Positions 46,815 to 64,000 of a stretch of DNA of 64,000 bases are shown here, piece after piece. The stretch is from Trypanosoma brucei. Its lineage: Eukaryota. A model generated the notes under the pieces. That model saw nothing but the letters and a program-made list of their open reading frames with translations, was not told the origin of the DNA and ran no database searches. The translations under genes and the position numbers were made by a program. Position 1 is the stretch's first letter. Each line of letters starts with the position of its first letter. The stretch spans positions 2,272,001 to 2,336,000 of the forward strand of contig CH464491.1 in assembly GCA_000002445.1 (NCBI GenBank). The letters are read 5' to 3'.

Positions 46815-47163
46815 CAAAAGCATAAGGAGGTCCACTACAATTATACTGTTGTTCCCAGATATACGGGTGTGCGCCTAAAGGGACACGTGACGTTCAAATT
46901 GGATATCCCTCCCATTGTTGACCGTATCTCACATTATTGGATATGTTGTAATCACTGACGGCTTGCTGTGAACTGCCACAGCTGTACACATGCACACACA
47001 TGTGATTCGGTTTTTCTTCTCCCAATATCCTTCCTTTCATATAATATAGGCAACCACACAATATTGGCACAACACCTGCTATCAAACTACCCTAACCCAA
47101 GTGTCTGTTTGTTTCTTTACGTCACTGGGAGGGTTTTAACAAGAACTAACATTGAGTCTGACT

Positions 47164-48881
47164 ATGTGTGGGGGAGAAGAGAATGGTGGATTGGATCAGG
47201 CACATGTGTCCTACAGTGGCAGTGCGAGTGAGCAAAACATTGCGGAAATGATTGTAGACCCATCAGGTTCCCGTCAGCCCACAGCATTCCAACTCACACT
47301 CGATTGCAATAAGGCAGGAATGGGAAATGTGGATAAGGAACGTGTGGAAGCTATTATACGTAATGTAAGGGAAGGCTCACCTTTTTTATGAATGAGCAGC
47401 GTTTGGCTGAGGGTCGAGAGAAGCAACTGCAAGAGCTGAAGCGGAAATCATCTCTCTTCACTCAGTTGTTGGGTGGTGAACGAAACGCTGCGCAGCGGAA
47501 ACAGTGGGAGCTGAAGGTTTCCAAAATAGAACAGGAGCTTGAGGCTACGCGTCGACTGGGAACTTATATCCATTTAGACATGGACATGTTTTATGCTGCT
47601 GTTGAAATCAAGAAGCATCCGGAGTACGCCGCCATTCCGCTTGCCATAGGCACAATAACGAGGTTGATAACAACAAATTATGTTGCGCGTGGACGTGGTA
47701 TTCGTCAAGGTATGCCAGGTTTCCTTGCTCTAAAAATCTGCCCGAATTTGCTCATTCTGCCTCCTGATTTCGATGCTTACAATGAGGAATCCAATACTGT
47801 GCGCCGTATTGTTGCTGAATACGACCCTAATTATATCAGCTTTGGTTTGGATGACTTTACTCTCGAAGTAAGTGCCTACATAGAGCGTTTTGAGGGAACC
47901 AAAACAGCCGAAGATGTGGCTTCTGAACTGCGTGTGCGTGTATTTGGTGAAACAAAGTTGACAGCAAGTGCTGGTATTGGACCCACTGCAGCACTTGCCA
48001 AGATTGCCAGTAATATTAATAAGCCGAATGGACAACATGATCTTAATCTTCACACCCGAGGGGATGTGATGACATACGTCAGGGATTTGGGTCTACGTTC
48101 TGTGCCTGGTGTTGGGAAGGTTACGGAAGCTCTGTTGAAGGGACTGGGTATCACCACTCTCTCAGATATTTACAATAGGCGTGTTGAACTTTGTTACATT
48201 TTGCACAATAATTTATTTCGCTTTTTGCTTGGAGCTTCCATTGGCATTATGCAATGGCCCGATGCAGCAACGGCAGCCAATACCGAGAATTGTGAGGGGG
48301 CTACTGGAGAGCAACGGAAGGCAATCAGTAGCGAGCGATCCATCACTACTCCACGAACCAAAGAAGGTATGCAGGAAATGCTTGATACCGTATTCAATGG
48401 TGCCTATGAAGAAATGCGGAAGAGTGAGCTAATGTGTAGACGCATTTCGTTAAGAATTAGGTGGGCCTCCTATCGTTATCAACAATACACAAAAAGTTTG
48501 ATACAATATTCAGATGACTCTGCAACCCTTCGCCGCGCAGTGGATGGTTTACTGTTACCGCATGCTGCAAAGTATTCAGAGATTTCACTGTTGGGGGTAC
48601 GTTTTCTTGACCTTATCTCTGCAAAAGACTTTCATATGAAAAGAAAGGGTGGTAACCAACTGTCTATTTCACAATTTATTCGCCCCAAGAAGCCGGGTGA
48701 GGTAACAGCAACCACCGGTATAAAAAGGGAGAGAACTACTGAACCGAAACAGGTTGTTGGAGTGAATCTATCATCAGATGACGAGGATGAGAATGATAGT
48801 GTTGGCTTGGCATCTAGCTCCACTATACTCGTTTCAACTGACAAAGGTACTGTTGAGAGGGAAGTTACCATAATTGAGTGA
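47164..48881 (+). pseudogene. POLK: DNA polymerase kappa-like copy 1 with a -1 frameshift (pseudogene, or a sequencing error in a T-run)
   Basis: The N-terminal ORF (track 47152..47391) ends at a TGA (47389-47391) within cttttttatgaatgag. The paralogous copies read ...ccttttt(g/a)(a/t)t(g/t)aatga(g/a)... in frame, and copy 1 is 1 nt shorter at this point. The downstream ORF 47388..48881 encodes the full catalytic core (LDMDMFYAAVE, SFGLDDFTLEVS). Confidence 0.7.
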
Positions 48882-49596
48882 AATGAGGACATCAGTCAAT
48901 AGAAATTCCCACATTGCCCAATGGCATTCATATACAAATCACCTATACACAAGTACCCATAAACAAAACACATTATACACATGTATTGTTATACAGCTAT
49001 CATATGTTTTCATTTTTTGAAGTTATACTTTATATGGTTTATTACTTACATTGTTTTTTTCTTAAGCATGCTTGTGCTCATGTACAACCAGTGGAGCAAC
49101 TGGCTAATAACTCCTTCATCTTTGTGCGGACACCTTGGTGTATCCTATACTTTCTTTGAGGCCTTCTAATCCAGGTACTTTTTACACACTGTGACGCTAA
49201 TAAGTGTAGTTCTTTCTTTTGATTAATGTCTACTGCGTGCAGTGATGCGAAAAAGTCTGTACTTTATTTGTATGTTTATCTTCGGGTTTGATTTGTTTGG
49301 TTGCTGATGGCAGTGGAAGGCCTCTGCAATTATGTTTGTGTTTTTGTTTCTTTGTGTTGCTGTTTTTCTATATTTTTGGAGTTTGTTTTTTTTCTTCCTG
49401 TTTTTTTGCACTTCTTTTCTTTGCTTTCCTCTTGCAACATATTTTTTTATGTAATTGTATTTTTTTTGTGTGTGTAATGGTGGCGGATGTTGTTTTTGTT
49501 TTAGTAGTTGAAGTTTTTGTTTGTTGTTGGATTGAGAGCGACAACGGTAGTTTGCTGATGGTTTCGTTTATTTACAGCTGCGTCTCTAGTCGTCTG

Positions 49597-50181
49597 ATGT
49601 TTGCTAGTGTGAAGAGGGCTGTTGGGCAATATTCATGTTTTCATGTGATTTGTTCCCCGCGCTTCCACAGTAACTATGTTGTGGGGGTCAACAAGGCGCC
49701 TAGTTGGATCGCGTCCCCGACAGAAAGGCGACGAAAGTTTGGTGAAGAGTGCCTTGCCGAAGGTAAAGAGCGGGATGGCGACATGGATGTAGAGCTTGTT
49801 CCCGTGGACGTGAAAAAGCTTGCTTTGCCCCTGCACCTCACGGACTCGATCCCGCAGGATATCGTCGATAATATCGTTGCGAGAGATAGAACACTTGTTT
49901 TCGCGCCAAACATGAAGATACTAGACCTGCACAGGCGGTTGTCCCGGATGAAGTATCGGATAAGCGTCCAGCCGCTTGGGAAGGTGCTGCACTTCCGATT
50001 CTTTCGGCTGTGTAAATTGTCCAGCGGTATGCCCGGAGATGTTACAGTGGAAACCTTCCGCAGCATCCAGCAGAAACTCTCCGAGTACACAAGATTTTTG
50101 GTGATGGATGAACGTTGGCCACTGGAGTTGTCATTAGAAATTACCCCCATTATTGAGCATCAACGGAAAGCAATGCTTTGA
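49597..50181 (+). CDS. Hypothetical ORF (195 aa from ATG 49597; ORF-track 49288..50181) on a non-array insert between polymerase copies 1 and 2
   Basis: The array spacer sequence is interrupted at 49335, immediately after gcaattatg. A T/G-rich UTR-like tract (49335-49596) follows, then a complex-composition ORF ending at a TGA at 50179-50181, 5 nt before the 100-N gap. No domain recognised. The upstream part of the track ORF (49288-49596) is low-complexity and probably untranslated. Confidence 0.4.
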   Translation: MFASVKRAVGQYSCFHVICSPRFHSNYVVGVNKAPSWIASPTERRRKFGEECLAEGKERDGDMDVELVPVDVKKLALPLHLTDSIPQDIVDNIVARDRTLVFAPNMKILDLHRRLSRMKYRISVQPLGKVLHFRFFRLCKLSSGMPGDVTVETFRSIQQKLSEYTRFLVMDERWPLELSLEITPIIEHQRKAML

Positions 50182-50186
50182 TGCCA

Positions 50187-50286
50187 NNNNNNNNNNNNNN
50201 NNNNNNNNNNNNNNNNNNNNNNNNNNNNNNNNNNNNNNNNNNNNNNNNNNNNNNNNNNNNNNNNNNNNNNNNNNNNNNNNNNNNNN
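50187..50286. other. Assembly gap (100 N)
   Basis: A run of exactly 100 n characters. The sequence resumes inside the array spacer (acatgtattgttatacacc...). Confidence 1.
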
Positions 50287-50991
50287 ACATGTATTGTTAT
50301 ACACCTATCATATGTTTTCATTTTTTGAAGTTATACTTTATATGGTTTATTACTTACATTGTTTTTTTCTTAAGCATGCTTGTGCTCATGTACAACCAGT
50401 GGAGCAACTGGCTAATAACTCCTTCATCTTTGTGCGGACACCTTGGTGTATCCTATACTTTCTTTGAGGCCTTCTAATCCAGGTACTTTTTACACACTGT
50501 GACGCTAATAAGTGTAGTTCTTTCTTTTGATTAATGTCTACTGCGTGCAGTGATGCGAAAAAGTGTGTACTTTATTTGTATGTTTATCTTCGGGTTTGAT
50601 TTGTTTGGTTGCTGATGACAGCGGAAGGTCTCTGCAATTATGAAAACTCATAAGGAGGTCCACTATAATTATACTGTTGTTCCCAGATATACGGGTGTGC
50701 GCCTAAAGGGACACGTGACGTTCAAATTGGATATCCCTCCCATTGTTGACCGTATCTCACATTATTGGATATGTTGTAATCACTGACGGCTTGCTGTGAA
50801 CTGCCACAGCTGTACACATGCACACACATGTGATTCGGTTTTTCTTCTCCTAATATCCTTCCTTTCATATAATATAGGCAACCACACAATATTGGCACAA
50901 CACCTGCTATCAAACTACCCTAACCCAAGTGTCTGTTTGTTTCTTTACGTCACTGGGAGGGTTTTAACAAGAACTAACATTGAGTCTGACT

Positions 50992-52704
50992 ATGTGTGGG
51001 GGAGAAGAGAATGGTGGATTGGATCAGGCACATGTGTCCTACAGTGGCAGTGCGAGTGAGCAAAACATTGCGGAAATGATTGTAGACCCATCAGCTTCCC
51101 GTCAGCCCACAGCATTCCAACTCACACTCGATTGCAATAAGGCAGGAATGGGAAATGTGGATAAGGAGCGTGTCGCTGCAGTGATACATGAGATGTCTGC
51201 GGGATCAGGGTACCTTTGCAATCAGCAGCGTTTATCAAAAAGTCGAGAGAAGCAACTGCAAGAACTCAAGCGGAAATCATCTCTCTTCACTCAGTTGTTG
51301 GGTGGTGAACGAAACGCTGCGCGGCGGACGCAGTGGGAGGTGAAGGTTTCCAAAATAGAACAGGAGCTTGAGGCTACGCGTCGACTGGGAACTTATATCC
51401 ATTTAGACATGGACATGTTTTATGCTGCTGTTGAAATCAAGAAGCATCCGGAGTACGCCAACGTTCCGCTTGCAGTTGGAACTAAAACAATGCTAACAAC
51501 CGCAAATTATGTTGCTAGAGGTTGTGGTGTCCGTCCTGGTATGCCAGGTTATATCGGATTGAAGATTTGCCCGAATTTGCTCATTCTGCCTCCTGATTTC
51601 GATACTTACAATGAGGAATCCAATACTGTGCGCCGTATTGTTGCTGAATACGACCCTAATTACATCAGCTTTGGTTTGGATGAACTGACCCTTGAGGTAA
51701 GTGCCTACATAGAGCGTTTTGAGGGAACCAAAACAGCCGAAGATGTGGCTTCTGAACTGCGTGTGCGTGTATTTGGTGAAACAAAGTTGACAGCAAGTGC
51801 TGGTATTGGACCCACTGCAGCACTTGCCAAGATTGCCAGTAATATTAATAAGCCGAATGGACAACATGATCTTAATCTTCACACCCGAGGGGATGTGATG
51901 ACATACGTCAGGGATTTGGGTCTACGTTCTGTGCCTGGTATTGGGAAGGCTATGGAAGCTCTGTTGAAGGGACTGGGTATCACCACTCTCTCAGATATTT
52001 ACAATAGGCGTGTTGAACTTTGTTATATCTTTACCGAAAAAACATATCGCTTTTTGCTTGGAGCTTCCATTGGCATTATGCAATGGCCCGATGCGTGTAA
52101 TATACCGGGTGGCTCTGTCGATGATGGGACAGGTGTGGGAAGGAAGTCAGTTGGTAGTGAACGTACATTCAAAATATTGCAAAGCAAAGAGGAATTACAG
52201 GAAATTGTTGATTTTATTTTTAATTCTTCGTATGATGAACTAAAGAAACATGAGCTGATGTGTAGACAGGTTTCGTTAAGAATAAGGTGGGCAACCTATC
52301 GATCCCGGCAGTATACTATGAATTTAGCCCAACATTCAGATGACTCTGCAACCCTTCGCCGCGCAGTGGATGGTTTACTGTTACCGCATGCTGCAAAGTA
52401 CTCAGATATGTCGTTACTGGGGATGCGTCTGTTAGACCTTATCTTTGCAAAAGACTTTCATATGAAAAGAAAGGGTGGTAACCAACTGTCTATTTCACAA
52501 TTTATTCGCCCCAAGAAGCCGGGTGAGGTAACAGCAACCACCGGTATAAAAAGGGAGAGGACTACTGAACCGAAACAGGTTGTGGAAATAATAATATCAT
52601 CAGATGACGAGGATGAGAATGATAGTGTTGGCTTGGCATCTAGCTCCACTATACTCGTTTCAACTGGCAAAGGTACTGTTGAGAGGGAAGTTACCATAAT
52701 TTAG
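50992..52704 (+). CDS. POLK: DNA polymerase kappa-like (Y-family/DinB) copy 2, variant A little-finger cassette
   Basis: Y-family motifs are present: motif I LDMDMFYAAVE, motif III SFGLDELTLEVSAY, and HhH/thumb SVPGIGKAMEALLKGLGITTLSDI. Copy-specific cassettes are ANVPLAVGTKTMLTTANYVARGCGVRPGMPGYIGLKI and CNIPGGSVDDGTGVGRKSVGSERTFKILQSKEELQEIVDF... The ORF-track start 50980 is a TTG; the first ATG is at 50992. Confidence 0.9.
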   Translation: MCGGEENGGLDQAHVSYSGSASEQNIAEMIVDPSASRQPTAFQLTLDCNKAGMGNVDKERVAAVIHEMSAGSGYLCNQQRLSKSREKQLQELKRKSSLFTQLLGGERNAARRTQWEVKVSKIEQELEATRRLGTYIHLDMDMFYAAVEIKKHPEYANVPLAVGTKTMLTTANYVARGCGVRPGMPGYIGLKICPNLLILPPDFDTYNEESNTVRRIVAEYDPNYISFGLDELTLEVSAYIERFEGTKTAEDVASELRVRVFGETKLTASAGIGPTAALAKIASNINKPNGQHDLNLHTRGDVMTYVRDLGLRSVPGIGKAMEALLKGLGITTLSDIYNRRVELCYIFTEKTYRFLLGASIGIMQWPDACNIPGGSVDDGTGVGRKSVGSERTFKILQSKEELQEIVDFIFNSSYDELKKHELMCRQVSLRIRWATYRSRQYTMNLAQHSDDSATLRRAVDGLLLPHAAKYSDMSLLGMRLLDLIFAKDFHMKRKGGNQLSISQFIRPKKPGEVTATTGIKRERTTEPKQVVEIIISSDDEDENDSVGLASSSTILVSTGKGTVEREVTII

Positions 52705-53509
52705 TGAAGTGAGGACATCAGTCAATGGAAACGCTCACATTGCCCAATGGCATTCATATACAAATCACCTATACACAAGTACCCATAAACAAAACACATT
52801 ATACACATGTATTGTTATACAGCTATCATATGTTTTCATTTTTTGAAGTTATACTTTATATGGTTTATTACTTACATTGTTTTTTTCTTAAGCATGCTTG
52901 TGCTCATGTACAACCAGTGGAGCAACTGGCTAATAACTCCTTCATCTTTGTGCGGACACCTTGGTGTATCCTATACTTTCTTTGAGGCCTTCTAATCCAG
53001 GTACTTTTTACACACTGTGACGCTAATAAGTGTAGTTCTTTCTTTTGATTAATGTCTACTGCGTGCAGTGATGTGAAAAAGTCTGTACTTTATTTGTATG
53101 TTTATCTTCGGGTTTGATTTGTTTGGTTGCTGATGACAGCGGAAGGCCTCTGCAATTATGAAAACTCATAAGGAGGTCCACTATAATTATACTGTTGTTC
53201 CCAGATATACGGGTGTGCGCCTAAAGGGACACGTGACGTTCAAATTGGATATCCCTCCCATTGTTGACCGTATCTCACATTATTGGATATGTTGTAATCA
53301 CTGACGGCTTGCTGTGAACTGCCACAGCTGTACACATGCACACACATGTGATTCGGTTTTTCTTCTCCCAATATCCTTCCTTTCATATAATATAGGCAAC
53401 CACACAATATTGGCACAACACCTGCTATCAAACTACCCTAACCCAAGTGTCTGTTTGTTTCTTTACGTCATTGGGAGGGTTTTAACAAGAACTAACATTG
53501 AGTCTGACT

Positions 53510-55228
53510 ATGTGTGGGGGAGAAGAGAATGGTGGATTGGATCAGGCACATGTGTCCTACAGTGGCAGTGCGAGTGAGCAAAACATTGCGGAAATGATTG
53601 TAGACCCATCAGCTTCCCGTCAGCCCACAGCATTCCAACTCACACTCGATTGCAATAAGGCAGGAATGGGAAATGTGGATAAGGAACGTGTGGAAGCTAT
53701 TATACGTGGTGCCGGGGAAGGCACACCTTTTTTATTAAATGAACAACGTTTGGTTGAGGGTCGAGAGAAGCAACTGCGGGAACTCAAACGGAAATCATCT
53801 CTCTTCACTCGGTTGTTGGGTGGTGAACGAAACGCTGCGCAGCGGACGCAATGGGAGGTGAAGGTTTCCAAAATAGAACAGGAGCTTGAGGCTACGCGTC
53901 GACTGGGAACTTATATCCATTTAGACATGGACATGTTTTATGCTGCTGTTGAAATCAAGAAGCATCCGGAGTACGCCACCATTCCGCTTGCCATAGGCAC
54001 CATGACGAGGCTACAAACAGCAAATTACATTGCGCGTGGACGTGGTATTCGTCAAGGTATGCCAGGTTTCCTTGCTCTAAAAATCTGCCCGAATTTGCTC
54101 ATTCTGCCTCCTGATGATGATTCTTACAATGAGGAATCCAATACTGTGCGCCGTATTGTTGCTGAATACGACCCTAATTACATAGTTGTTGGTTTGGATG
54201 AACTAGCCCTTGAGGTAAGTGCCTACATAGAGCGTTTTGAGGGAACCAAAACAGCCGAAGATGTGGCTTCTGAACTGCGTGTGCGTGTATTTGGTGAAAC
54301 AAAGTTGACAGCAAGTGCTGGTATTGGACCCACTGCAGCACTTGCCAAGATTGCCAGTAATATTAATAAGCCGAATGGACAACATGATCTTAATCTTCAT
54401 ACCCGAGAGGATGTGATGACATACGTCAGGGATTTGGGTCTACGTTCTGTGCCTGGTGTTGGGAAGGTTACGGAAGCTCTGTTGAAGGGACTGGGTATCA
54501 CCACTCTCTCAGATATTTACAATAGGCGTGTTGAACTTTGTTACATTTTGCACAATAATTTATTTCGCTTTTTGCTTGGAGCTTCCATTGGCATTATGCA
54601 ATGGCCCGATGCAGCAACGGCAGCCAATACCGAGAATTGTGAGGGGGCTACTGGAGAGCAACGGAAGGCAATCAGTAGCGAGCGATCCATCACTACTCCA
54701 CGAACCAAAGAAGGTATGCAGGAAATGGTTGATACCGTATTCAATGGTGCCTATGAAGAAATGCGGAAGAGTGAGATAATGTGTAGACGGATATCCCTCA
54801 CAATTAGATGGGCGTCTTATCGTTATCAACAATACACAAAAAGTTTGATACAACATTCAGATGACTCTGCAACCCTTCGCCGCGCAGTAGACGAGCTCAT
54901 GTTACCGCACGCTGCAAAGTATTCAGAGATGTGTTTGTTGGGGGTACGTCTCTCGGACCTTATCTCTGCAAAAGACTTTCATATGAAAAGAAAGGGTGGT
55001 AACCAACTGTCTATTTCACAATTTATTCGCCCCAAGAAGCCGGGTGAGGTAACAGCAACCACCGGTATAAAAAGGGAGAGGACTACTGAACCGAAACAGG
55101 TTGTGGAAATAATAATATCATCAGATGACGAGGATGAGAATGATAGTGTTGGCTTGGCATCTAGCTCCACTATACTCGTTTCAACTGACAAAGGTACTGT
55201 TGAGAGGGAAGTTACCATAATTGAGTGA
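53510..55228 (+). CDS. POLK: DNA polymerase kappa-like copy 3, variant B cassette set
   Basis: Shares the same conserved blocks as the other copies. Motif III reads VVGLDELALEVS. It carries a unique PPDDDSYNEES block. The thumb/little-finger linker is CEGATGEQRKAISSERSITTPRTKEGMQEMVDTVF, shared with copies 1 and 6. Confidence 0.9.
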   Translation: MCGGEENGGLDQAHVSYSGSASEQNIAEMIVDPSASRQPTAFQLTLDCNKAGMGNVDKERVEAIIRGAGEGTPFLLNEQRLVEGREKQLRELKRKSSLFTRLLGGERNAAQRTQWEVKVSKIEQELEATRRLGTYIHLDMDMFYAAVEIKKHPEYATIPLAIGTMTRLQTANYIARGRGIRQGMPGFLALKICPNLLILPPDDDSYNEESNTVRRIVAEYDPNYIVVGLDELALEVSAYIERFEGTKTAEDVASELRVRVFGETKLTASAGIGPTAALAKIASNINKPNGQHDLNLHTREDVMTYVRDLGLRSVPGVGKVTEALLKGLGITTLSDIYNRRVELCYILHNNLFRFLLGASIGIMQWPDAATAANTENCEGATGEQRKAISSERSITTPRTKEGMQEMVDTVFNGAYEEMRKSEIMCRRISLTIRWASYRYQQYTKSLIQHSDDSATLRRAVDELMLPHAAKYSEMCLLGVRLSDLISAKDFHMKRKGGNQLSISQFIRPKKPGEVTATTGIKRERTTEPKQVVEIIISSDDEDENDSVGLASSSTILVSTDKGTVEREVTIIE

Positions 55229-56030
55229 AATGAGGACATCAGTCAATAGAAATTCCCACATTGCCCAATGGTATTCATATACAAATCACCTATACACAAG
55301 TACCCATAAACAAAACACATTATACACATGTATTGTTATACACCTATCATATGTTTTCATTTTTTGAAGTTATACTTTATATGGTTTATTACTTACATTG
55401 TTTTTTTCTTAAGCATGCTTGTGCTCATGTACAACCAGTGGAGCAACTGGCTAATAACTCCTTCATCTTTGTGCGGACACCTTGGTGTATCCTATACTTT
55501 CTTTGAGGCCTTCTAATCCAGGTACTTTTTACACACTGTGACGCTAATAAGTGTAGTTCTTTCTTTTGATTAATGTCTACTGCGTGCAGTGATGCGAAAA
55601 AGTCTGTACTTTATTTGTATGTTTATCTTCGGGTTTGATTTGTTTGGTTGCTGATGACAGCGGAAGGCCTCTGCAATTATGAAAACTCATAAGGAGGTCC
55701 ACTATAATTATACTGTTGTTCCCAGATATACGGGTGTGCGCCTAAAGGGACACGTGACGTTCAAATTGGATATCCCTCCCATTGTTGACCGTATCTCACA
55801 TTATTGGATATGTTGTAATCACTGACGGCTTGCTGTGAACTGCCACAGCTGTACACATGCACACACATGTGATTCGGTTTTTCTTCTCCCAATATCCTTC
55901 CTTTCATATAATATAGGCAACCACACAATATTGGCACAACACCTGCTATCAAACTACCCTAACCCAAGTGTCTGTTTGTTTCTTTACGTCACTGGGAGGG
56001 TTTTAACAAGAACTAACATTGAGTCTGACT

Positions 56031-57746
56031 ATGTGTGGGGGAGAAGAGAATGGTGGATTGGATCAGGCACATGTGTCCTACAGTGGCAGTGCGAGTGAGC
56101 AAAACATTGCGGAAATGATTGTAGACCCATCAGGTTCCCGTCAGCCCACAGCATTCCAACTCACACTCGATTGCAATAAGGCAGGAATGGGAAATGTGGA
56201 TAAGGAACGTGTGGAAGCTATTATACGTAATGTATCTGAGGGTTCTTCCTTTTTGATGAATGAGCAGCGGAAGGCTGAGGGTCGAGAGAAGCAACTGCAA
56301 GAGCTCAAGCGGAAATCATCTCTCTTCACTCAGTTGTTGGGTGGTGAACGAAACGCTGCGCGGCGGAAACAGTGGGAGCTGAAGGTTTCCAAAATAGAAC
56401 AGGAGCTTGAGGCTACGCGTCGACTGGGAACTTATATCCATTTAGACATGGACATGTTTTATGCTGCTGTTGAAATCAAGAAGCATCCGGAGTACGCCAA
56501 CGTTCCGCTTGCAGTTGGGAGTGTGTCAATGTTGTCTACCGCAAATTATGTTGCACGTGAATGTGGTATTCGCTCCGGTATGCCAGGTTATATCGGATTG
56601 AAGGTCTGCCCGAATTTGCTCATTCTGCCTCCTGATTTCGATGCTTACAATGAAGAATCCAATACTGTGCGCCGTATTGTTGATGAATACGACCCTAATT
56701 TTACCTCTCTCGGTTTGGATGACTTGACCCTCGAGGTAAGTGCCTACATAGAGCGTTTTGAGGGAACCAAAACAGCCGAAGATGTGGCTTCTGAACTGCG
56801 TGTGCGTGTATTTGGTGAAACAAAGTTGACAGCAAGTGCTGGTATTGGACCCACTGCAGCACTTGCCAAGATTGCCAGTAATATTAATAAGCCGAATGGA
56901 CAACATGATCTTAATCTTCATACCCGAGGGGATGTGATGACATACGTCAGGGATTTGGGTCTACGTTCTGTGCCTGGTGTTGGGAAGGTTACGGAAGCTC
57001 TGTTGAAGGGACTGGGTATCACCACTCTCTCAGATATTTACAATAGGCGTGTTGAACTTTGTTACATTTTGCACAATAATTTATTTCGCTTTTTGCTTGG
57101 AGCTTCCATTGGCATTATGCAATGGCCCGATGCAGCAACGGCAGCCAATACCGAGAATTGTGAGGGGGCTACTGGAGGGCAACGGAAGGCAATCAGTAGC
57201 GAGCGATCTTTTTATGTGTTACATAGCAAAGAGCAGTTGCATGAAATGATTTACAGTATTTTTGAAGAGGCCTATGAAGAAATGCGACAGAATGAGATGT
57301 TGTGTCGTCAGATCTCCTTGCTTGTGCGTTGGTCGTCTTATCGTTATCAACAATACACAAAAAGTTTGATACAATATTCAGATGACTCTGCAACCCTTCG
57401 CCGCGCAGTGGATGGTTTACTGTTACCGCACGCTGCAAAGTATTCAGAGATGTGTTTGTTGGGGGTACGTTTTCTTGACCTTATCTCTGCAAAAGACTTT
57501 CATATGAAAAGAAAGGGTGGTAACCAACTGTCTATTTCACAATTTATTCGCCCCAAGAAGCCGGGTGAGGTAACAGCAACCACCGGTATAAAAAGGGAGA
57601 GGACTACTGAACCGAAACAGGTTGTGGAAATAATAATATCATCAGACGACGAGGATGAGAATGATAGTGTTGGCTTGGCATCTAGCTCCACTATACTCGT
57701 TTCAACTGACAAAGGTACTGTTGAGAGGGAAGTTACCATAATTTAG
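56031..57746 (+). CDS. POLK: DNA polymerase kappa-like copy 4, variant C linker
   Basis: Motif III reads SLGLDDLTLEVS, a D-D version. The palm cassette is ANVPLAVGSVSMLSTANYVARECGIRSGMPGYIGLKV. The linker ...SERSFYVLHSKEQLHEMIYSIFEEAYEEMRQNEMLCRQISLLVRW is unique to this copy. Confidence 0.9.
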   Translation: MCGGEENGGLDQAHVSYSGSASEQNIAEMIVDPSGSRQPTAFQLTLDCNKAGMGNVDKERVEAIIRNVSEGSSFLMNEQRKAEGREKQLQELKRKSSLFTQLLGGERNAARRKQWELKVSKIEQELEATRRLGTYIHLDMDMFYAAVEIKKHPEYANVPLAVGSVSMLSTANYVARECGIRSGMPGYIGLKVCPNLLILPPDFDAYNEESNTVRRIVDEYDPNFTSLGLDDLTLEVSAYIERFEGTKTAEDVASELRVRVFGETKLTASAGIGPTAALAKIASNINKPNGQHDLNLHTRGDVMTYVRDLGLRSVPGVGKVTEALLKGLGITTLSDIYNRRVELCYILHNNLFRFLLGASIGIMQWPDAATAANTENCEGATGGQRKAISSERSFYVLHSKEQLHEMIYSIFEEAYEEMRQNEMLCRQISLLVRWSSYRYQQYTKSLIQYSDDSATLRRAVDGLLLPHAAKYSEMCLLGVRFLDLISAKDFHMKRKGGNQLSISQFIRPKKPGEVTATTGIKRERTTEPKQVVEIIISSDDEDENDSVGLASSSTILVSTDKGTVEREVTII

Positions 57747-58551
57747 TGAAATGAGGACATCAGTCAATAGAAATTCCCACATTGCCCAATGGCATTCATA
57801 TACAAATCACCTATACACAAGTACCCATAAACAAAACACATTATACACATGTATTGTTATACAGCTATCATATGTTTTCATTTTTTGAAGTTATACTTTA
57901 TATGGTTTATTACTTACATTGTTTTTTTCTTAAGCATGCTTGTGCTCATGTACAACCAGTGGAGCAACTGGCTAATAACTCCTTCATCTTTGTGCGGACA
58001 CCTTGGTGTATCCTATACTTTCTTTGAGGCCTTCTAATCCAGGTACTTTTTACACACTGTGACGCTAATAAGTGTAGTTCTTTCTTTTGATTAATGTCTA
58101 CTGCGTGCGGTGATGCGAAAAAGTCTGTACTTTATTTGTATGTTTATCTTCGGGTTTGATTTGTTTGGTTGCTGATGACAGTGGAAGGTCTCTGCAATTA
58201 TGAAAACTCATAAGGAGGTCCACTATAATTATACTGTTGTTCCCAGATATACGGGTGTGCGCCTAAAGGGACAGGTGACGTTCAAATTGGATATCCCTCC
58301 CATTGTTGACCGTATCTCACATTATTGGATATGTTGTAATCACTGACGGCTTGCTGTGAACTGCCACAGCTGTACACATGCACACACATGTGATTCGGTT
58401 TTTCTTCTCCCAATATCCTTCCTTTCATATAATATAGGCAACCACACAATATTGGCACAACACCTGCTATCAAACTACCCTAACCCAAGTGTCTGTTTGT
58501 TTCTTTACGTCACTGGGAGGGTTTTAACAAGAACTAACATTGAGTCTGACT

Positions 58552-60267
58552 ATGTGTGGGGGAGAAGAGAATGGTGGATTGGATCAGGCACATGTGTCCT
58601 ACAGTGGCAGTGCGAGTGAGCAAAACATTGCGGAAATGATTGTAGGCCCATCAGGTTCCCGTCAGCCCACAGCATTCCAACTCACACTCGATTGCAATAA
58701 GGCAGGAATGGGAAATGTGGATAAGGAACGTGTGGAAGCTATTATACGTAATGTATCTGAGGGTTCTTCCTTTTTGATGAATGAGCAGCGGAAGGCTGAG
58801 GGTCGAGAGAAGCAACTGCAAGAACTCAAGCGGAAATCATCTCTCTTCACTCAGTTGTTGGGTGGTGAACGAAACGCTGCGCAGCGGAAACAGTGGGAGC
58901 TGAAGGTTTCCAAAATAGAACAGGAGCTTGAGGCTACGCGTCGACTGGGAACTTATATCCATTTAGACATGGACATGTTTTATGCTGCTGTTGAAATCAA
59001 GAAGCATCCGGAGTACGCCGCCATTCCACTTGCAGTTGGGAGTGTGTCAATGTTGTCTACCGCAAATTATGTTGCACGTGAATGTGGTATTCGCTCCGGT
59101 ATGCCAGGTTATATCGGATTGAAGGTCTGCCCGAATTTGCTCATTCTGCCTCCTGATTTCGATGCTTACAATGAGGAATCCAATACTGTGCGCCGTATTG
59201 TTGCTGAATACGACCCTAATTTTACCTCTCTCGGTTTGGATGAACTGACCCTTGAGGTAAGTGCCTACATAGAGCGCTTTGAGGGAACCAAAACAGCCGA
59301 AGATGTGGCTTCTGAACTGCGTGTGCGTGTATTTGGTGAAACAAAGTTGACAGCAAGTGCTGGTATTGGACCCACTGCAGCACTTGCCAAGATTGCCAGT
59401 AATATTAATAAGCCGAATGGACAACATGATCTTAATCTTCATACCCGAGAGGATGTGATGACATACGTCAGGGATTTGGGTCTACGTTCTGTGCCTGGTA
59501 TTGGGAAGGTTACGGAAGCTCTGTTGAAGGGACTGGGTATCACCACTCTCTCAGATATTTACAATAGGCGTGTTGAACTTTGTTATATTTTTACCGAAAA
59601 AACATATTGTTTTTTGCTTGGAGCTTCCATTGGCATTATGCAATGGCCCGATATGTGCAGCATACTTGGTGCCTCCATCGATGATGGGACAGGTGTGGGA
59701 AGGAAGTCAGTTGGGTGTGAACGTACATTCAAAACATTTCAAAACAAAGAAGAATTGCAGGAAATGGTTGATTTCTTAGTCGACTACTCATATGATGAAC
59801 TAAAGAAACATGAGCTGATGTGTAGACAGGTTTCGTTAAAAATTCGATGGAATTCCTACCGTCATCAACAATACACAAAGAATTTGACTCAATATTCAGA
59901 TGACTCTGCAACCCTTCGCCGCGCAGTAGACGAGCTCATGTTACCGCACGCTGCAAAGTATTCAGAGATGCGGCTGCTGGGGGTACGTTTTCTTGACCTT
60001 ATCTTTGCAAAAGACTTTCATATGAAAAAAAAGGGTGGTAACCAACTGTCTATTTCACAATTTATTCGCCCCAAGAAGCCGGGTGAGGTAACAGCAACCA
60101 CCGGTATAAAAAGGGAGAGGACTACTGAACCGAAACAGGTTGTGGAAATAATAATATCATCAGATGACGAGGATGAGAATGATAGTGTTGGCTTGGCATC
60201 TAGCTCCACTGTACTCGTTTCAACTGACAAAGGTACTGTTGAGAGGGAAGTTACCATAATTGAGTGA
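58552..60267 (+). CDS. POLK: DNA polymerase kappa-like copy 5, variant A-prime linker
   Basis: Motif III reads SLGLDELTLEVS. The palm cassette is as in copy 4. The linker MCSILGASIDDGTGVGRKSVGCERTFKTFQNKEELQEMVDFLVDYSYDELKKHELMCRQVSLKIRW is related to copy 2 but distinct. Confidence 0.9.
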   Translation: MCGGEENGGLDQAHVSYSGSASEQNIAEMIVGPSGSRQPTAFQLTLDCNKAGMGNVDKERVEAIIRNVSEGSSFLMNEQRKAEGREKQLQELKRKSSLFTQLLGGERNAAQRKQWELKVSKIEQELEATRRLGTYIHLDMDMFYAAVEIKKHPEYAAIPLAVGSVSMLSTANYVARECGIRSGMPGYIGLKVCPNLLILPPDFDAYNEESNTVRRIVAEYDPNFTSLGLDELTLEVSAYIERFEGTKTAEDVASELRVRVFGETKLTASAGIGPTAALAKIASNINKPNGQHDLNLHTREDVMTYVRDLGLRSVPGIGKVTEALLKGLGITTLSDIYNRRVELCYIFTEKTYCFLLGASIGIMQWPDMCSILGASIDDGTGVGRKSVGCERTFKTFQNKEELQEMVDFLVDYSYDELKKHELMCRQVSLKIRWNSYRHQQYTKNLTQYSDDSATLRRAVDELMLPHAAKYSEMRLLGVRFLDLIFAKDFHMKKKGGNQLSISQFIRPKKPGEVTATTGIKRERTTEPKQVVEIIISSDDEDENDSVGLASSSTVLVSTDKGTVEREVTIIE

Positions 60268-60969
60268 AATGAGGACATCAGTCAATAGAAATTCCCTTTA
60301 TTCTAGCGGCATATTTATAGATATTTATTTCGGTTTTCCCATTCGGCAGAGAGAAATACAACATGTATTAAGTATTGGGGAGCAACTGGCTAATAACTCC
60401 TTCATCTTTGTGCGGACACCTTGGTGTATCCTATACTTTCTTTGAGGCCTTCTAATCCAGGTACTTTTTACACACTGTGACGCTAATAAGTGTAGTTCTT
60501 TCTTTTGATTAATGTCTACTGCGTGCAGTGATGCGAAAAAGTGTGTACTTTATTTGTATGTTTATCTTCGGGTTTGATTTGTTTGGTTGCTGATGACAGC
60601 GGAAGGCCTCTGCAATTATGAAAACTCATAAGGAGGTCCACTATAATTATACTGTTGTTCCCAGATATACGGGTGTGCGCCTAAAGGGACAGGTGACGTT
60701 CAAATTGGATATCCCTCCCATTGTTGACCGTATCTCACATTATTGGATATGTTGTAATCACTGACGGCTTGCTGTGAACTGCCACAGCTGTACACATGCA
60801 CACACATGTGATTCGGTTTTTCTTCTCCCAATATCCTTCCTTTCATATAATATAGGCAACCACACAATATTGGCACAACACCTGCTATCAAACTACCCTA
60901 ACCCAAGTGTCTGTTTGTTTCTTTACGTCATTGGGAGGGTTTTAACAAGAACTAACATTGAGTCTGACT

Positions 60970-62685
60970 ATGTGTGGGGGAGAAGAGAATGGTGGATTGG
61001 ATCAGGCACATGTGTCCTACAGTGGCAGTGCGAGTGAGCAAAACATTGCGGAAATGATTGTAGACCCATCAGGTTCCCGTCAGCCCACAGCATTCCAACT
61101 CACACTCGATTGCAATAAGGCAGGAATGGGAAATGTGGATAAGGAACGTGTGGAAGCTATTATACGTAATGTATCTGAGGGTTCTTCCTTTTTGATGAAT
61201 GAGCAGCGGAAAGCTGAGGGTCGAGAGAAGCAACTGCAAGAGCTGAAGCGGAAATCATCTCTCTTCACTCGGTTGTTGGGTGGTGAACGAAACGCTGCGC
61301 AGCGGAAACAGTGGGAGCTGAAGGTTTCCAAAATAGAACAGGAGCTTGAGGCTACGCGTCGACTGGGAACTTATATCCATTTAGACATGGACATGTTTTA
61401 TGCTGCTGTTGAAATCAAGAAGCATCCGGAGTACGCCGCCATTCCGCTTGCCATAGGCACAATAACGAGGTTGATAACAACAAATTATGTTGCGCGTGGA
61501 CGTGGTATTCGTCAAGGTATGCCAGGTTTCCTTGCTCTAAAAATCTGCCCGAATTTGCTCATTCTGCCTCCTGATTTCGATGCTTACAACGAAGAATCCA
61601 ATACTGTGCGCCGTATTGTTGCTGAATACGACCCTAATTATATCAGCTTTGGTTTGGATGACTTTACTCTCGAAGTAAGTGCCTACATAGAGCGTTTTGA
61701 GGGAACCAAAACAGCCGAAGATGTGGCTTCTGAACTGCGTGTGCGTGTATTTGGTGAAACAAAGCTGACAGCAAGTGCTGGTATTGGACCCACTGCAGCA
61801 CTTGCCAAGATTGCCAGTAATATTAATAAGCCGAATGGACAACATGATCTTAATCTTCATACCCGAGAGGATGTGATGACATACGTCAGGGATTTGGGTC
61901 TACGTTCTGTGCCTGGTGTTGGGAAGGTTACGGAAGCTCTGTTGAAGGGACTGGGTATCACCACTCTCTCAGATATTTACAATAGGCGTGTTGAACTTTG
62001 TTACATTTTGCACAATAATTTATTTCGCTTTTTGCTTGGAGCTTCCATTGGCATTATGCAATGGCCCGATGCAGCAACGGCAGCCAATACCGAGAATTGT
62101 GAGGGGGCTACTGGAGAGCAACGGAAGGCAATCAGTAGCGAGCGATCCATCACTACTCCACGAACCAAAGAAGGTATGCAGGAAATGCTTGATACCGTAT
62201 TCAATGGTGCCTATGAAGAAATGCGGAAGAGTGAGATAATGTGTAGACGGATATCCCTCACAATTAGATGGGCCTCTTATCGTTATCAACAATACACAAA
62301 AAGTTTGATACAACATTCAGATGACTCTGCAACCCTTCGCCGCGCAGTGGATGGTTTACTGTTACCGCACGCTGCAAAGTATTCAGAGATGTGTTTGTTG
62401 GGGGTACGTCTCTCGGACCTTATCTCTGCAAAAGACTTTCATATGAAAAGAAAGGGTGGTAACCAACTGTCTATTTCACAATTTATTCGCCCCAAGAAGC
62501 CGGGTGAGGTAACAGCAACCACCGGTATAAAAAGGGAGAGGACTACTGAACCGAAACAGGTTGTGGAAATAATAATATCATCAGACGACGAGGATGAGAA
62601 TGATAGTGTTGGCTTGGCATCTAGCTCCACTATACTCGTTTCAACTGGCAAAGGTACTGTTGAGAGGGAAGTTACCATAATTTAG
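60970..62685 (+). CDS. POLK: DNA polymerase kappa-like copy 6, variant B
   Basis: Nearly identical to copy 1's downstream ORF (AAIPLAIGTITRLITTNYVARGRGIRQGMPGFLALKI; SFGLDDFTLEVS) but intact, with no frameshift. It ends VTII followed by a TAG. Confidence 0.9.
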   Translation: MCGGEENGGLDQAHVSYSGSASEQNIAEMIVDPSGSRQPTAFQLTLDCNKAGMGNVDKERVEAIIRNVSEGSSFLMNEQRKAEGREKQLQELKRKSSLFTRLLGGERNAAQRKQWELKVSKIEQELEATRRLGTYIHLDMDMFYAAVEIKKHPEYAAIPLAIGTITRLITTNYVARGRGIRQGMPGFLALKICPNLLILPPDFDAYNEESNTVRRIVAEYDPNYISFGLDDFTLEVSAYIERFEGTKTAEDVASELRVRVFGETKLTASAGIGPTAALAKIASNINKPNGQHDLNLHTREDVMTYVRDLGLRSVPGVGKVTEALLKGLGITTLSDIYNRRVELCYILHNNLFRFLLGASIGIMQWPDAATAANTENCEGATGEQRKAISSERSITTPRTKEGMQEMLDTVFNGAYEEMRKSEIMCRRISLTIRWASYRYQQYTKSLIQHSDDSATLRRAVDGLLLPHAAKYSEMCLLGVRLSDLISAKDFHMKRKGGNQLSISQFIRPKKPGEVTATTGIKRERTTEPKQVVEIIISSDDEDENDSVGLASSSTILVSTGKGTVEREVTII

Positions 62686-63490
62686 TGAAATGAGGGCATC
62701 AGTCAATAGAAATTCCCACATTGCCCAATGGCATTCATATACAAATCACCTATACACAAGTACCCATAAACAAAACACATTATACACATGTATTGTTATA
62801 CACCTATCATATGTTTTCATTTTTTGAAGTTATACTTTATATGGTTTATTACTTACATTGTTTTTTTCTTAAGCATGCTTGTGCTCATGTACAACCAGTG
62901 GAGCAACTGGCTAATAACTCCTTCATCTTTGTGCGGACACCTTGGTGTATCCTATACTTTCTTTGAGGCCTTCTAATCCAGGTACTTTTTACACACTGTG
63001 ACGCTAATAAGTGTAGTTCTTTCTTTTGATTAATGTCTACTGCGTGCAGTGATGCGAAAAAGTGTGTACTTTATTTGTATGTTTATCTTCGGGTTTGATT
63101 TGTTTGGTTGCTGATGACAGTGGAAGGTCTCTGCAATTATGAAAACTCATAAGGAGGTCCACTATAATTATACTGTTGTTCCCAGATATACGGGTGTGCG
63201 CCTAAAGGGACACGTGACGTTCAAATTGGATATCCCTCCCATTGTTGACCGTATCTCACATTATTGGATATGTTGTAATCACTGACGGCTTGCTGTGAAC
63301 TGCCACAGCTGTACACATGCACACACATGTGATTCGGTTTTTCTTCTCCTAATATCCTTCCTTTCATATAATATAGGCAACCACACAATATTGGCACAAC
63401 ACCTGCTATCAAACTACCCTAACCCAAGTGTCTGTTTGTTTCTTTACGTCACTGGGAGGGTTTTAACAAGAACTAACATTGAGTCTGACT

Positions 63491-63977
63491 ATGTGTGGGG
63501 GAGAAGAGAATGGTGGATTGGATCAGGCACATGTGTCCTACAGTGGCAGTGCGAGTGAGCAAAACATTGCGGAAATGATTGTAGACCCATCAGCTTCCCG
63601 TCAGCCCACAGCATTCCAACTCACACTCGATTGCAATAAGGCAGGAATGGGAAATGTGGATAAGGAACGTGTGGAAGCTATTATACGTAATGTATCTGAG
63701 GGTTCTTCCTTTTTGATGAATGAGCAGCGGAAAGCTGAGGGTCGAGAGAAGCAACTGCAAGAGCTGAAGCGGAAATCATCTCTCTTCACTCAGTTGTTGG
63801 ATGGTGAACGAAACGCTGCGCAGCGGAAACAGTGGGAGCTGAAGGTTTCCAAAATAGAACAGGAGCTTGAGGCTACGCGTCGACTGNGAACTTATATCCA
63901 TTTAGACATGGACATGTTTTATGCTGCTGTTGANATCAAGAAGCATCCGGAGTACGCCGCCATTCCGCTTGCCATAG
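63491..63977 (+). CDS. POLK: DNA polymerase kappa-like copy 7, 5' partial (truncated by Ns and the window end)
   Basis: Same N-terminal sequence as copies 4-6 (MCGGEENGG...NVSEGSSFLMNEQRKAEGREKQ...LDMDMFYAAV). Two single-n ambiguities occur at 63887 and 63934, then a run of N from 63978. Confidence 0.8.
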
Positions 63978-64000
63978 NNNNNNNNNNNNNNNNNNNNNNN

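Follow-up and report, generated by a model that had tools for sequence, protein, structure and literature searches.

Conversion between the primate red and green opsin genes, between RHD and RHCE, and in introns of the major histocompatibility complex (MHC) homogenises non-coding DNA, and selection keeps small coding regions apart; the description of such cases is reportedly due to Shyue 1994, Innan 2003 and Teshima & Innan 2004. Programmed cassette systems are known as well, among them the mosaics of VSG genes, pilE/pilS of Neisseria, and gene conversion in chicken immunoglobulin (Ig) genes. Here we compare with these systems a tandem array of genes for DNA polymerase kappa (POLK) in Trypanosoma brucei TREU927, which is contained in a stretch of 64,000 nucleotides (contig CH464491.1, positions 2,272,001 to 2,336,000 of the forward strand); this whole stretch is called the window, and its numbering is used throughout. 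The available sections of Jackson (2007, BMC Evol Biol 7:54, PMC1855330) list array 112 with a Ds of 0.2129 and a Dn of 0.0892 under concerted evolution, and name five conversion events in it, one of the type 5' untranslated region-coding sequence (5'UTR-CDS) and four within the CDS, with Sanger reads as vouchers. The same sections describe how segmental conversion in PGK A/B/C and in the hexose transporters THT1/THT2 gives chimaeric copies, while isoform-specific segments are kept (PMC1855330). For the POLK array, the corresponding part of Jackson (2010, PLoS NTD 4:e658, PMC2854126) gives p<0.001 in a PHI test and no fewer than 10 GARD breakpoints. It also records isoforms that occur in T. 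b. gambiense as well, and counts 10 copies in T. b. brucei as opposed to 7 in T. b. gambiense. The latter seven are the genes Tbg972.11.9660-9720 (PMC7576959). Knock-down of POLK sensitises T. brucei cells to methyl methanesulfonate (MMS), and the pressure behind the expansion of POLK in this species is stated as unknown (PMC5542689). The literature searched contains no functional study of single T. brucei POLK isoforms, and a general search on selection against conversion yielded nothing specific.

Head-to-tail repeats occupy the window from about 46.8 kb onwards to its last base; their period is 2518-2521 bp. One unit of about 2.52 kb consists of a CDS of about 1.72 kb and a spacer of about 0.80 kb, the CDS being an open reading frame (ORF) of 570-572 codons. 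The protein of copy U3 (ORF 56031-57743) is 100% identical to the TREU927 entry 'DNA polymerase kappa, putative', which lies on a contig of 5.26 Mb, and the remaining copies of the window match adjacent accessions in the range EAN79810-79816. With U3 as query, the Pfam families IMS (PF00817, E=1.9e-41), IMS_HHH (PF11798) and IMS_C (PF11799) all scored above their curated cut-offs. Structures of human Pol kappa matched the array protein with E=8e-74, the N-clasp being included in the alignment: the phmmer alignment begins at human residue 17 and spans residues 25-74, and the equivalent of F49 is kept. The window repeat is the POLK tandem array on chromosome 11 of T. brucei TREU927, that is, Jackson's array 112, and the present numbers agree with those of the two Jackson papers.

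According to the original prediction, the spacers of this array are essentially identical while the coding sequences diverge in patches, which is the inverse of the neutral expectation. The three spacers quoted (52705-53509, 805 nt; 55229-56030, 802 nt; 57747-58551, 805 nt) are the exact intervals between a stop codon and the next ATG, and the quoted single-nucleotide difference, cacgtgacg versus caggtgacg, was found at column 562 of the spacer alignment. The core of the claim was borne out when variable columns were counted over the five complete aligned units: 9 of 705 columns vary in the spacer, compared with 299 of 780 in six patches of the CDS (Fisher p=3e-84). However, the framing as spacer versus coding sequence holds for the patches only, since 54% of the CDS (codons 1-58, 118-156, 193-202, 243-344, 354-367, 450-459 and 495-571) is as uniform as the spacers. 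In this part 11 of 927 columns vary (Fisher p=1 against the spacer), and both the synonymous divergence dS and the non-synonymous divergence dN are 0.006. The real contrast is therefore the one between a backbone, made up of the spacer and half of the CDS, and the six patches. In sliding windows of 60 nt, nucleotide diversity (pi) is about 0-0.02 across the spacers and rises to 0.32 in the CDS, so that the divergence of the spacers is not comparable to that of the patches. Related strains show the same pattern: the gap-free array of T. b. gambiense DAL972 (locus L001), in which 7 of 7 ORFs are intact, has the same profile at the same positions (pi of 0.003 in the spacers and 0.084 in the CDS), and the spacers of T. 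equiperdum share about 99% of their bases with the window's.

Paralogous spacers differ by 0.17-0.68% (pi 0.0017-0.0068); between T. b. brucei and T. b. gambiense, the unique flanks of the array differ by 1.1-2.2%. The C-terminal tail of the protein is 97-100% identical among array copies versus 22-34% in comparison with other Trypanosoma species, and for the N-terminus the corresponding values are 97-100% versus 23-47%. Thus, paralogues are closer to each other than to their orthologues in the backbone, but not in the patches, as judged for the fingers. Because the tail is nearly identical within the array and yet only 22-34% identical between species, the alignments indicate that the uniformity of the backbone is due to concerted evolution and not to constraint. 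RNA genes were considered as a further cause of conservation. No Rfam match at E≤1 and no tRNA was found in the spacers, which excludes a snoRNA or tRNA as the cause of their uniformity. Among the near-identical substrates, the longest measures about 1.2 kb; it leads without interruption from the tail through the spacer into the N-terminus of the next copy and contains exact runs of up to about 400 nt.

In copy U3, which serves as reference for codon numbering, the six patches are located on the forward strand at codons 59-117 (P1, 56205-56381), 157-192 (P2, 56499-56606), 203-242 (P3, 56637-56756), 345-353 (P4, 57063-57089), 368-449 (P5, 57132-57377) and 460-494 (P6, 57408-57512). They were mapped onto the enzyme by alignment to human Pol kappa, with domain limits and contact residues taken from PMC2686167. 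P1 falls on the N-clasp, P2 on the fingers, P3 on the palm edge including residue 231, P4 on the end of the thumb, P5 on the linker between thumb and PAD together with the first half of the PAD (little finger), and P6 on the second half of the PAD. The most divergent block is P5. By homology, the islands would thus correspond to the N-clasp, the fingers with the template-base roof formed by M135, the tip of the thumb, and the PAD.

Between different types of a patch, dS ranges from 0.5 to saturation and dN from 0.1 to 0.45; the changes are therefore not synonymous-only. The ratio dN/dS (omega) is 0.15-0.5 in P1, P2, P3, P5 and P6; a value of about 1 is confined to the nine codons of P4. The statement that the patches differ at most positions is correct insofar as they are divergent, but overstated, as the mean difference is 13-40% and the divergence between types peaks at about 56% in short sub-blocks. 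Clustering resolved 2-8 discrete types per patch. For most blocks, divergence amounts to 0-0.014 within a type and to 0.13-0.40 between types; for P1b the two values are 0.032 and 0.09. The types are common to T. b. brucei, T. b. gambiense and T. equiperdum, and the combinations in which they occur differ. A retention of divergent cassettes, as anticipated, is supported both by silent sites near or at saturation and by the recurrence of the same types in the assemblies of three subspecies. Local hypermutation of the patches is excluded, as the types are discrete, near-identical within a type and common to the subspecies.

Recombination between the copies left clear traces. In the four-gamete test 44% of the informative site pairs were incompatible, and 0 of 1000 permutations gave a PHI-type statistic below the observed one (p<0.001) for T. 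b. brucei, for T. b. gambiense and for both combined. Inside one unit of 2.5 kb, synonymous divergence shifts about 100-fold across a few tens of bases. Mosaics also occur within a patch; an example is an island of type C at about codons 393-436 within type A of copy U3.

The cassettes are old. The two main types of the fingers are 56% identical at the protein level, and one of them is 69-72% identical to the orthologues of T. vivax and T. cruzi; the distance to the outgroups is about twice as large for the derived type as for this ancestral-like one. In the PAD, types A and B share 50-53% of their residues, and type B shares 54% with T. congolense. Judged by protein identity, the divergence of the cassettes appears to be as deep as that of the species. 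Copy U1b (50992-52704, 570 aa, EAN79812) and its T. b. gambiense counterpart CBH17848 (L001 4965-6677) have a type of their own in each patch, except for a short sub-block, P3a. No other isoform is as divergent as U1b, and none comes nearer to the outgroups in PAD and fingers. It looks like a coherent old, ancestral-like paralogue, and the other copies look like reassortments of two to three further types.

Falsely identical spacers and chimeric genes might also arise from collapsed or consensus-polished repeats, and the TREU927 assembly of this array has visible faults. A gap of 100 N (50187-50286) lies inside the array, and copy U0 is bordered by both unique flanks of the array. U0 (46821-48881, forward strand) begins with 343 nt of the shared 5' spacer, followed by a POLK copy in which position 47164 corresponds to the ATG; after 47388 a deletion of 1 nt causes a frameshift, and the annotated product EAN79810 is the ORF 47388-48881 of 497 aa. 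Its upstream neighbour is the unique flank of a first copy, and downstream follow the unique flank of a last copy and then the gap. At its C-terminus U0 has the motif GVNL, as does the last copy of T. b. gambiense, and the segment 46821-50186 is collinear with T. b. gambiense L001 17215-20579, i. e. with the last copy and the unique DNA behind the array (97.5% identity). The TREU927 assembly has thus probably joined contigs wrongly at U0 or collapsed copies there. The range given in the original prediction began at 48882; the quoted spacers are genuine, but its first part, 48882-50286, is no intergenic spacer. It is composed of 453 nt of the 3' part of the spacer (48882-49334), which is also present after the last array copy, of the unique downstream flank (49335-50186), which is misplaced or joined, and of the gap. 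The spacer before U1b (50287-50991) is truncated by the gap. At the other end, copy U6 (63491-64000) is cut by the end of the window and contains ambiguous bases at 63887, 63934 and 63978-64000, a sign of poor sequence quality towards this end of the array.

These faults, together with a backbone stretch of about 1.2 kb that is longer than a Sanger read, make the order and the number of the copies in the window unreliable, and the TREU927 assembly should not be trusted for copy order in the POLK array. They do not touch the core pattern of backbone and patches. The pattern, the positions of the patches and the types recur in DAL972, whose array is free of gaps, and in the assembly of T. equiperdum; adjacent patches of a gene are 30-310 nt apart and thus fit within one read; and, according to the available part of Jackson (2007), the conversion events of the array were checked against individual Sanger reads (PMC1855330). 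We therefore regard it as most improbable that the pattern is an artefact of the assembly.

The original prediction also considered an import of cassettes, by which a young and uniform array would have received divergent segments through ectopic conversion, with POLK genes at other places of the genome as donors. Ectopic conversion is known in a few T. brucei arrays (Tb105a, Tb32), as listed in the accessible sections of PMC1855330, and a recent review contains unplaced Tb11.v5 POLK entries, so that some copies are unplaced in the assembly. However, no POLK was found outside the array: all recovered T. brucei POLK proteins have consecutive accessions and lie on a single contig per genome, and the T. 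b. gambiense genes are likewise clustered (Tbg972.11.9660-9720, PMC7576959). In those sections of Jackson (2007), ectopic conversion is very rare and is not reported for the POLK array. Within positions 1-46800 of the window, POLK-like DNA is absent. The only neighbour of related kind is a remote Y-family-polymerase-like gene, which follows POLK in T. b. gambiense (L001 19951-21615), T. cruzi (L003 14168-15811) and T. vivax (L005 13840-15045). The T. b. gambiense protein has 554 aa, 24% identity to Pol kappa and only faint IMS matches; the window holds just the 5' part of this gene (49477-50181), with a premature stop beside the gap. Neither this neighbour nor the region 1-46800 qualifies as a donor, as both lack nucleotide similarity to the cassettes. 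Silent or partial donor copies apart from an expressed recipient were also not found; the array members are full-length and share the same flanks. The dispersed donors that had been proposed thus receive no support, and an origin by import has, in our opinion, hardly any credibility.

The positions of the patches in the enzyme and the residues that vary there bear on the role of selection. The roles of the human Pol kappa residues as catalytic, steric-gate, dNTP-binding or template-contacting were taken from PMC2686167. The equivalents of the catalytic D107 and D198, of the steric gate Y112, and of T138, Y141, R144 and K328, which bind the dNTP, are invariant across the copies. Residue 167 (U3 56529-56531), which corresponds to human M135 over the template base, is M or R, with Arg in most copies; at residue 169 (human S137), S, T, Q and I all occur; and residue 231 (U3 56721-56723), which corresponds to the catalytic E199, is E or D. 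The Asp occurs in about half of the copies (U0, U3, U5, EAN79819, EAN79820 and others), although the equivalents of M135 and E199 are invariant among all outgroup trypanosomatids examined. The copies have probably retained their function, because 7 of 7 T. b. gambiense ORFs are intact and the catalytic aspartates and dNTP-binding residues are invariant.

Given these exchanges, an ongoing positive diversifying selection of the arms-race type, as in MHC or antigen genes, had to be considered. Positions that are invariant in all outgroups and yet vary within the array (the equivalents of M135, S137, G189, E199 and others), the distance of the derived fingers type from the outgroups, and the omega of about 1 in the nine codons of P4 might be read in this way. 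On the other hand, omega is below 1 in all large patches and their synonymous sites are saturated, which characterises the divergence as old and not as fast; the types are near-identical between subspecies (within-type divergence of about 0-0.01), without turnover at that scale; and a DNA repair enzyme has no obvious antagonist in an arms race. The diversifying selection contained in the original prediction is thus not supported in the sense of an omega above 1, and we judge it very improbable. A selection that preserves different types is plausible.

The patches are also not simply the least constrained regions, which escaped conversion. The fingers show the highest conservation among the outgroups (0.82), yet 56% of their positions vary in the array; the C-terminal tail shows the lowest (0.38), yet only 3% of its positions vary. 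Over all positions, outgroup conservation is 0.56 for array-variable versus 0.61 for array-invariant positions (p=0.08). With this weak relation and the reversal in the extreme segments, an explanation by low constraint is excluded.

The reading that accounts best for these observations, with a probability of roughly 70%, is a segmental concerted evolution of the backbone combined with a long retention and shuffling of ancient cassettes. The alignments demonstrate, as far as sequence comparison can, that the backbone is homogenised, that the cassettes are old and discrete, and that copies have recombined with each other. Homologous recombination between the units, probably by unequal exchange between sister chromatids or homologues and by gene conversion, would keep the backbone near-identical; this backbone consists of the 1.2-kb stretch from tail to N-terminus plus smaller blocks inside the CDS, the largest of which are codons 118-156 and 243-344. 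Exchanges that end in the backbone would carry whole cassettes between copies, and because cassettes would move wholesale in this way, each gene would have its own combination of types. Cassettes that are 13-40% diverged presumably cannot pair; they would be replaced as a whole and would not be eroded by short tracts. In addition, selection would remove arrays that lose types. We propose this last step because the cassettes are at least 50-100-fold older than the backbone, because the ORFs are intact and evolve with an omega below 1, because the patches presumably lie in specificity elements, and because the relation between constraint and divergence is reversed. It is further suggested by the fact that the patches, by homology, cover contacts to the DNA and the template base (N-clasp, fingers, PAD), while the catalytic aspartates and the dNTP-binding residues are invariant.

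Most likely, the array goes back to a number of paralogues of ancient divergence, and homogenisation of their flanks and conserved blocks came later; a young uniform array that imported foreign cassettes is less likely. This history is favoured because T. cruzi shows segmental conversion between old POLK paralogues. The syntenic locus of T. cruzi comprises a zinc-finger gene, two POLK genes and then the remote Y-family-like gene. The two POLK genes (L003 8001-9815 and 11750-13303) share one tract of 578 bp with 99.8% identity, which covers palm and fingers, and are unalignable elsewhere; the tract has all features of a sharp gene-conversion tract. T. cruzi and T. theileri reportedly possess a POLK pair with a long and a short form, as described by Rajao et al. 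2009. The same pattern as in the T. cruzi pair was seen in the POLK proteins of T. theileri. Segmental conversion between old POLK paralogues thus appears to be ancestral to the group.

Alternatively, the cassettes could be neutral remnants of old paralogues, which at 13-40% divergence would be unable to form heteroduplex, would be sheltered from conversion by the anti-recombination activity of mismatch repair, and would drift slowly to loss without any selection. Homologous recombination in T. brucei is indeed length-dependent and impeded by mismatches (PMC1904282), the internal sub-mosaics such as the type C island of U3 would fit a slow erosion, the omega values give no signal of positive selection, and Jackson (2007), in the sections available, proposed that regions may escape conversion and diverge. 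However, the turnover of whole units and exchanges ending in the backbone replace cassettes wholesale, which is seen as shuffling between the subspecies, and because of this replacement a barrier gives the types no protection from loss. With a dS of about 0.006, the coalescence of the backbone is at least 50-100 times younger than the cassettes, and 2-8 types per patch would hardly survive that many turnovers by drift. Moreover, the most conserved segment, the fingers, is found in the patches and the least conserved one is uniform, which is the opposite of an escape by low constraint. We therefore consider a purely neutral persistence unlikely, although it deserves some weight.

Segmental concerted evolution with retained cassettes nevertheless has its weak points. 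The assembly of the TREU927 array is imperfect, as detailed above. The dS estimates of the patches are noisy, each being based on 25-50 synonymous sites, and the age of the cassettes relative to speciation was judged by protein identity only. Selection for the retention of types is deduced indirectly, as an omega below 1 indicates constraint only, and the mismatch barrier alone could slow the loss of types. Finally, the exchanges E199→D and M135→R could mean a relaxed constraint in redundant copies and not a new specificity.

As a more far-reaching and tentative extension, the array may be a natural combinatorial library of translesion polymerases, in which selection keeps 7-10 isoforms with different specificities for template lesions; we regard this as possible, but rather doubtful. 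Recombination in the backbone would then reassort ancient modules of N-clasp, fingers and PAD, and specificity might be set, for example, by Met or Arg over the template base and by Glu or Asp at the third catalytic carboxylate. If true, such a library would account for the unexplained expansion of POLK in T. brucei.

The remaining features of the window complete the layout of the array. All are on the forward strand: copies U2 (53510-55228, 572 aa, EAN79813), U3 (56031-57746, 571 aa, EAN79814), U4 (58552-60267, 571 aa, EAN79815) and U5 (60970-62685, 571 aa, EAN79816), and the spacer of 805 nt that follows U5 (62686-63490). The spacer between U4 and U5 is a variant of 702 nt (60268-60969), in which a unique segment of 82 nt (60297-60378) stands in place of about 182 nt; this segment has no second occurrence in the window and is absent from the loci of T. 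b. gambiense and T. equiperdum. As expected for a tandem array, the intergenic DNA is alignable and homology is truncated at both outer flanks. Downstream homology stops at spacer position 453 and upstream homology starts at about 469 (e. g. 55681-55697), which places the original duplication junction within this interval of about 16 nt.

For practical work, note that the identity of the backbone prevents short-read mapping, RNA interference (RNAi), RNAi target sequencing (RIT-seq) and proteomics from separating the isoforms there. Conversely, the cassette map leads to testable hypotheses, as it specifies modules and active-site residues that differ between copies (Tb167 M/R, Tb169 S/T/Q/I, Tb231 E/D) and the paralogue U1b.

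The array, its concerted evolution and its mosaicism have already been published; the general class, in which conversion evens out silent DNA and selection keeps coding islands, is well known, and the locus is not a new kind of system. In comparison with the available sections of the Jackson papers, what is added here is the partition into backbone and patches, the contrast in dS of about 100-fold, the map onto N-clasp, fingers and PAD, the missing correlation with constraint, and the active-site changes. New detail may lie in the assignment of the patches to domains and in the exchanges M135→R and E199→D; the inverted dependence on constraint is likewise worth recording. Segmental concerted evolution is seen very cleanly at this locus, where divergence runs against constraint and does not follow it in the usual way: the tail, the fastest-evolving segment between species, is uniform, and the fingers, the segment with the highest conservation between them, are diverse.

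The PGK and THT arrays resemble POLK in being tandem paralogues in one polycistronic unit that are partly converted. They consist of two to three isoforms with known functional differences, e. g. glycosomal versus cytosolic, whereas POLK has 7-10 copies with combinatorial cassettes. The T. cruzi POLK pair has the inverse layout: there, palm and fingers are homogenised and the ends, PAD, N-clasp and flanks are unalignable, whereas in T. brucei ends and spacers are homogenised and fingers, N-clasp and PAD differ. With VSG, pilE/pilS and Ig genes the array shares the movement of discrete segments between homologous genes by conversion via conserved flanks. Unlike these, it has no silent archive and no single expression site; its ORFs are full-length, have identical flanks and belong to a single transcription unit. 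It shows no sign of somatic or programmed switching. The likeness to opsins, RHD/RHCE and MHC lies in a silent or non-coding backbone that is more alike than the functional coding segments, and in islands that persist; as in those cases, the POLK backbone is homogenised and the coding islands are divergent at synonymous and non-synonymous sites. Those systems comprise two or few loci, with an omega above 1 in the MHC-type cases, which was not found in the variable segments here; POLK, in contrast, is a head-to-tail array of 10 copies, whose ancient islands evolve with an omega below 1.

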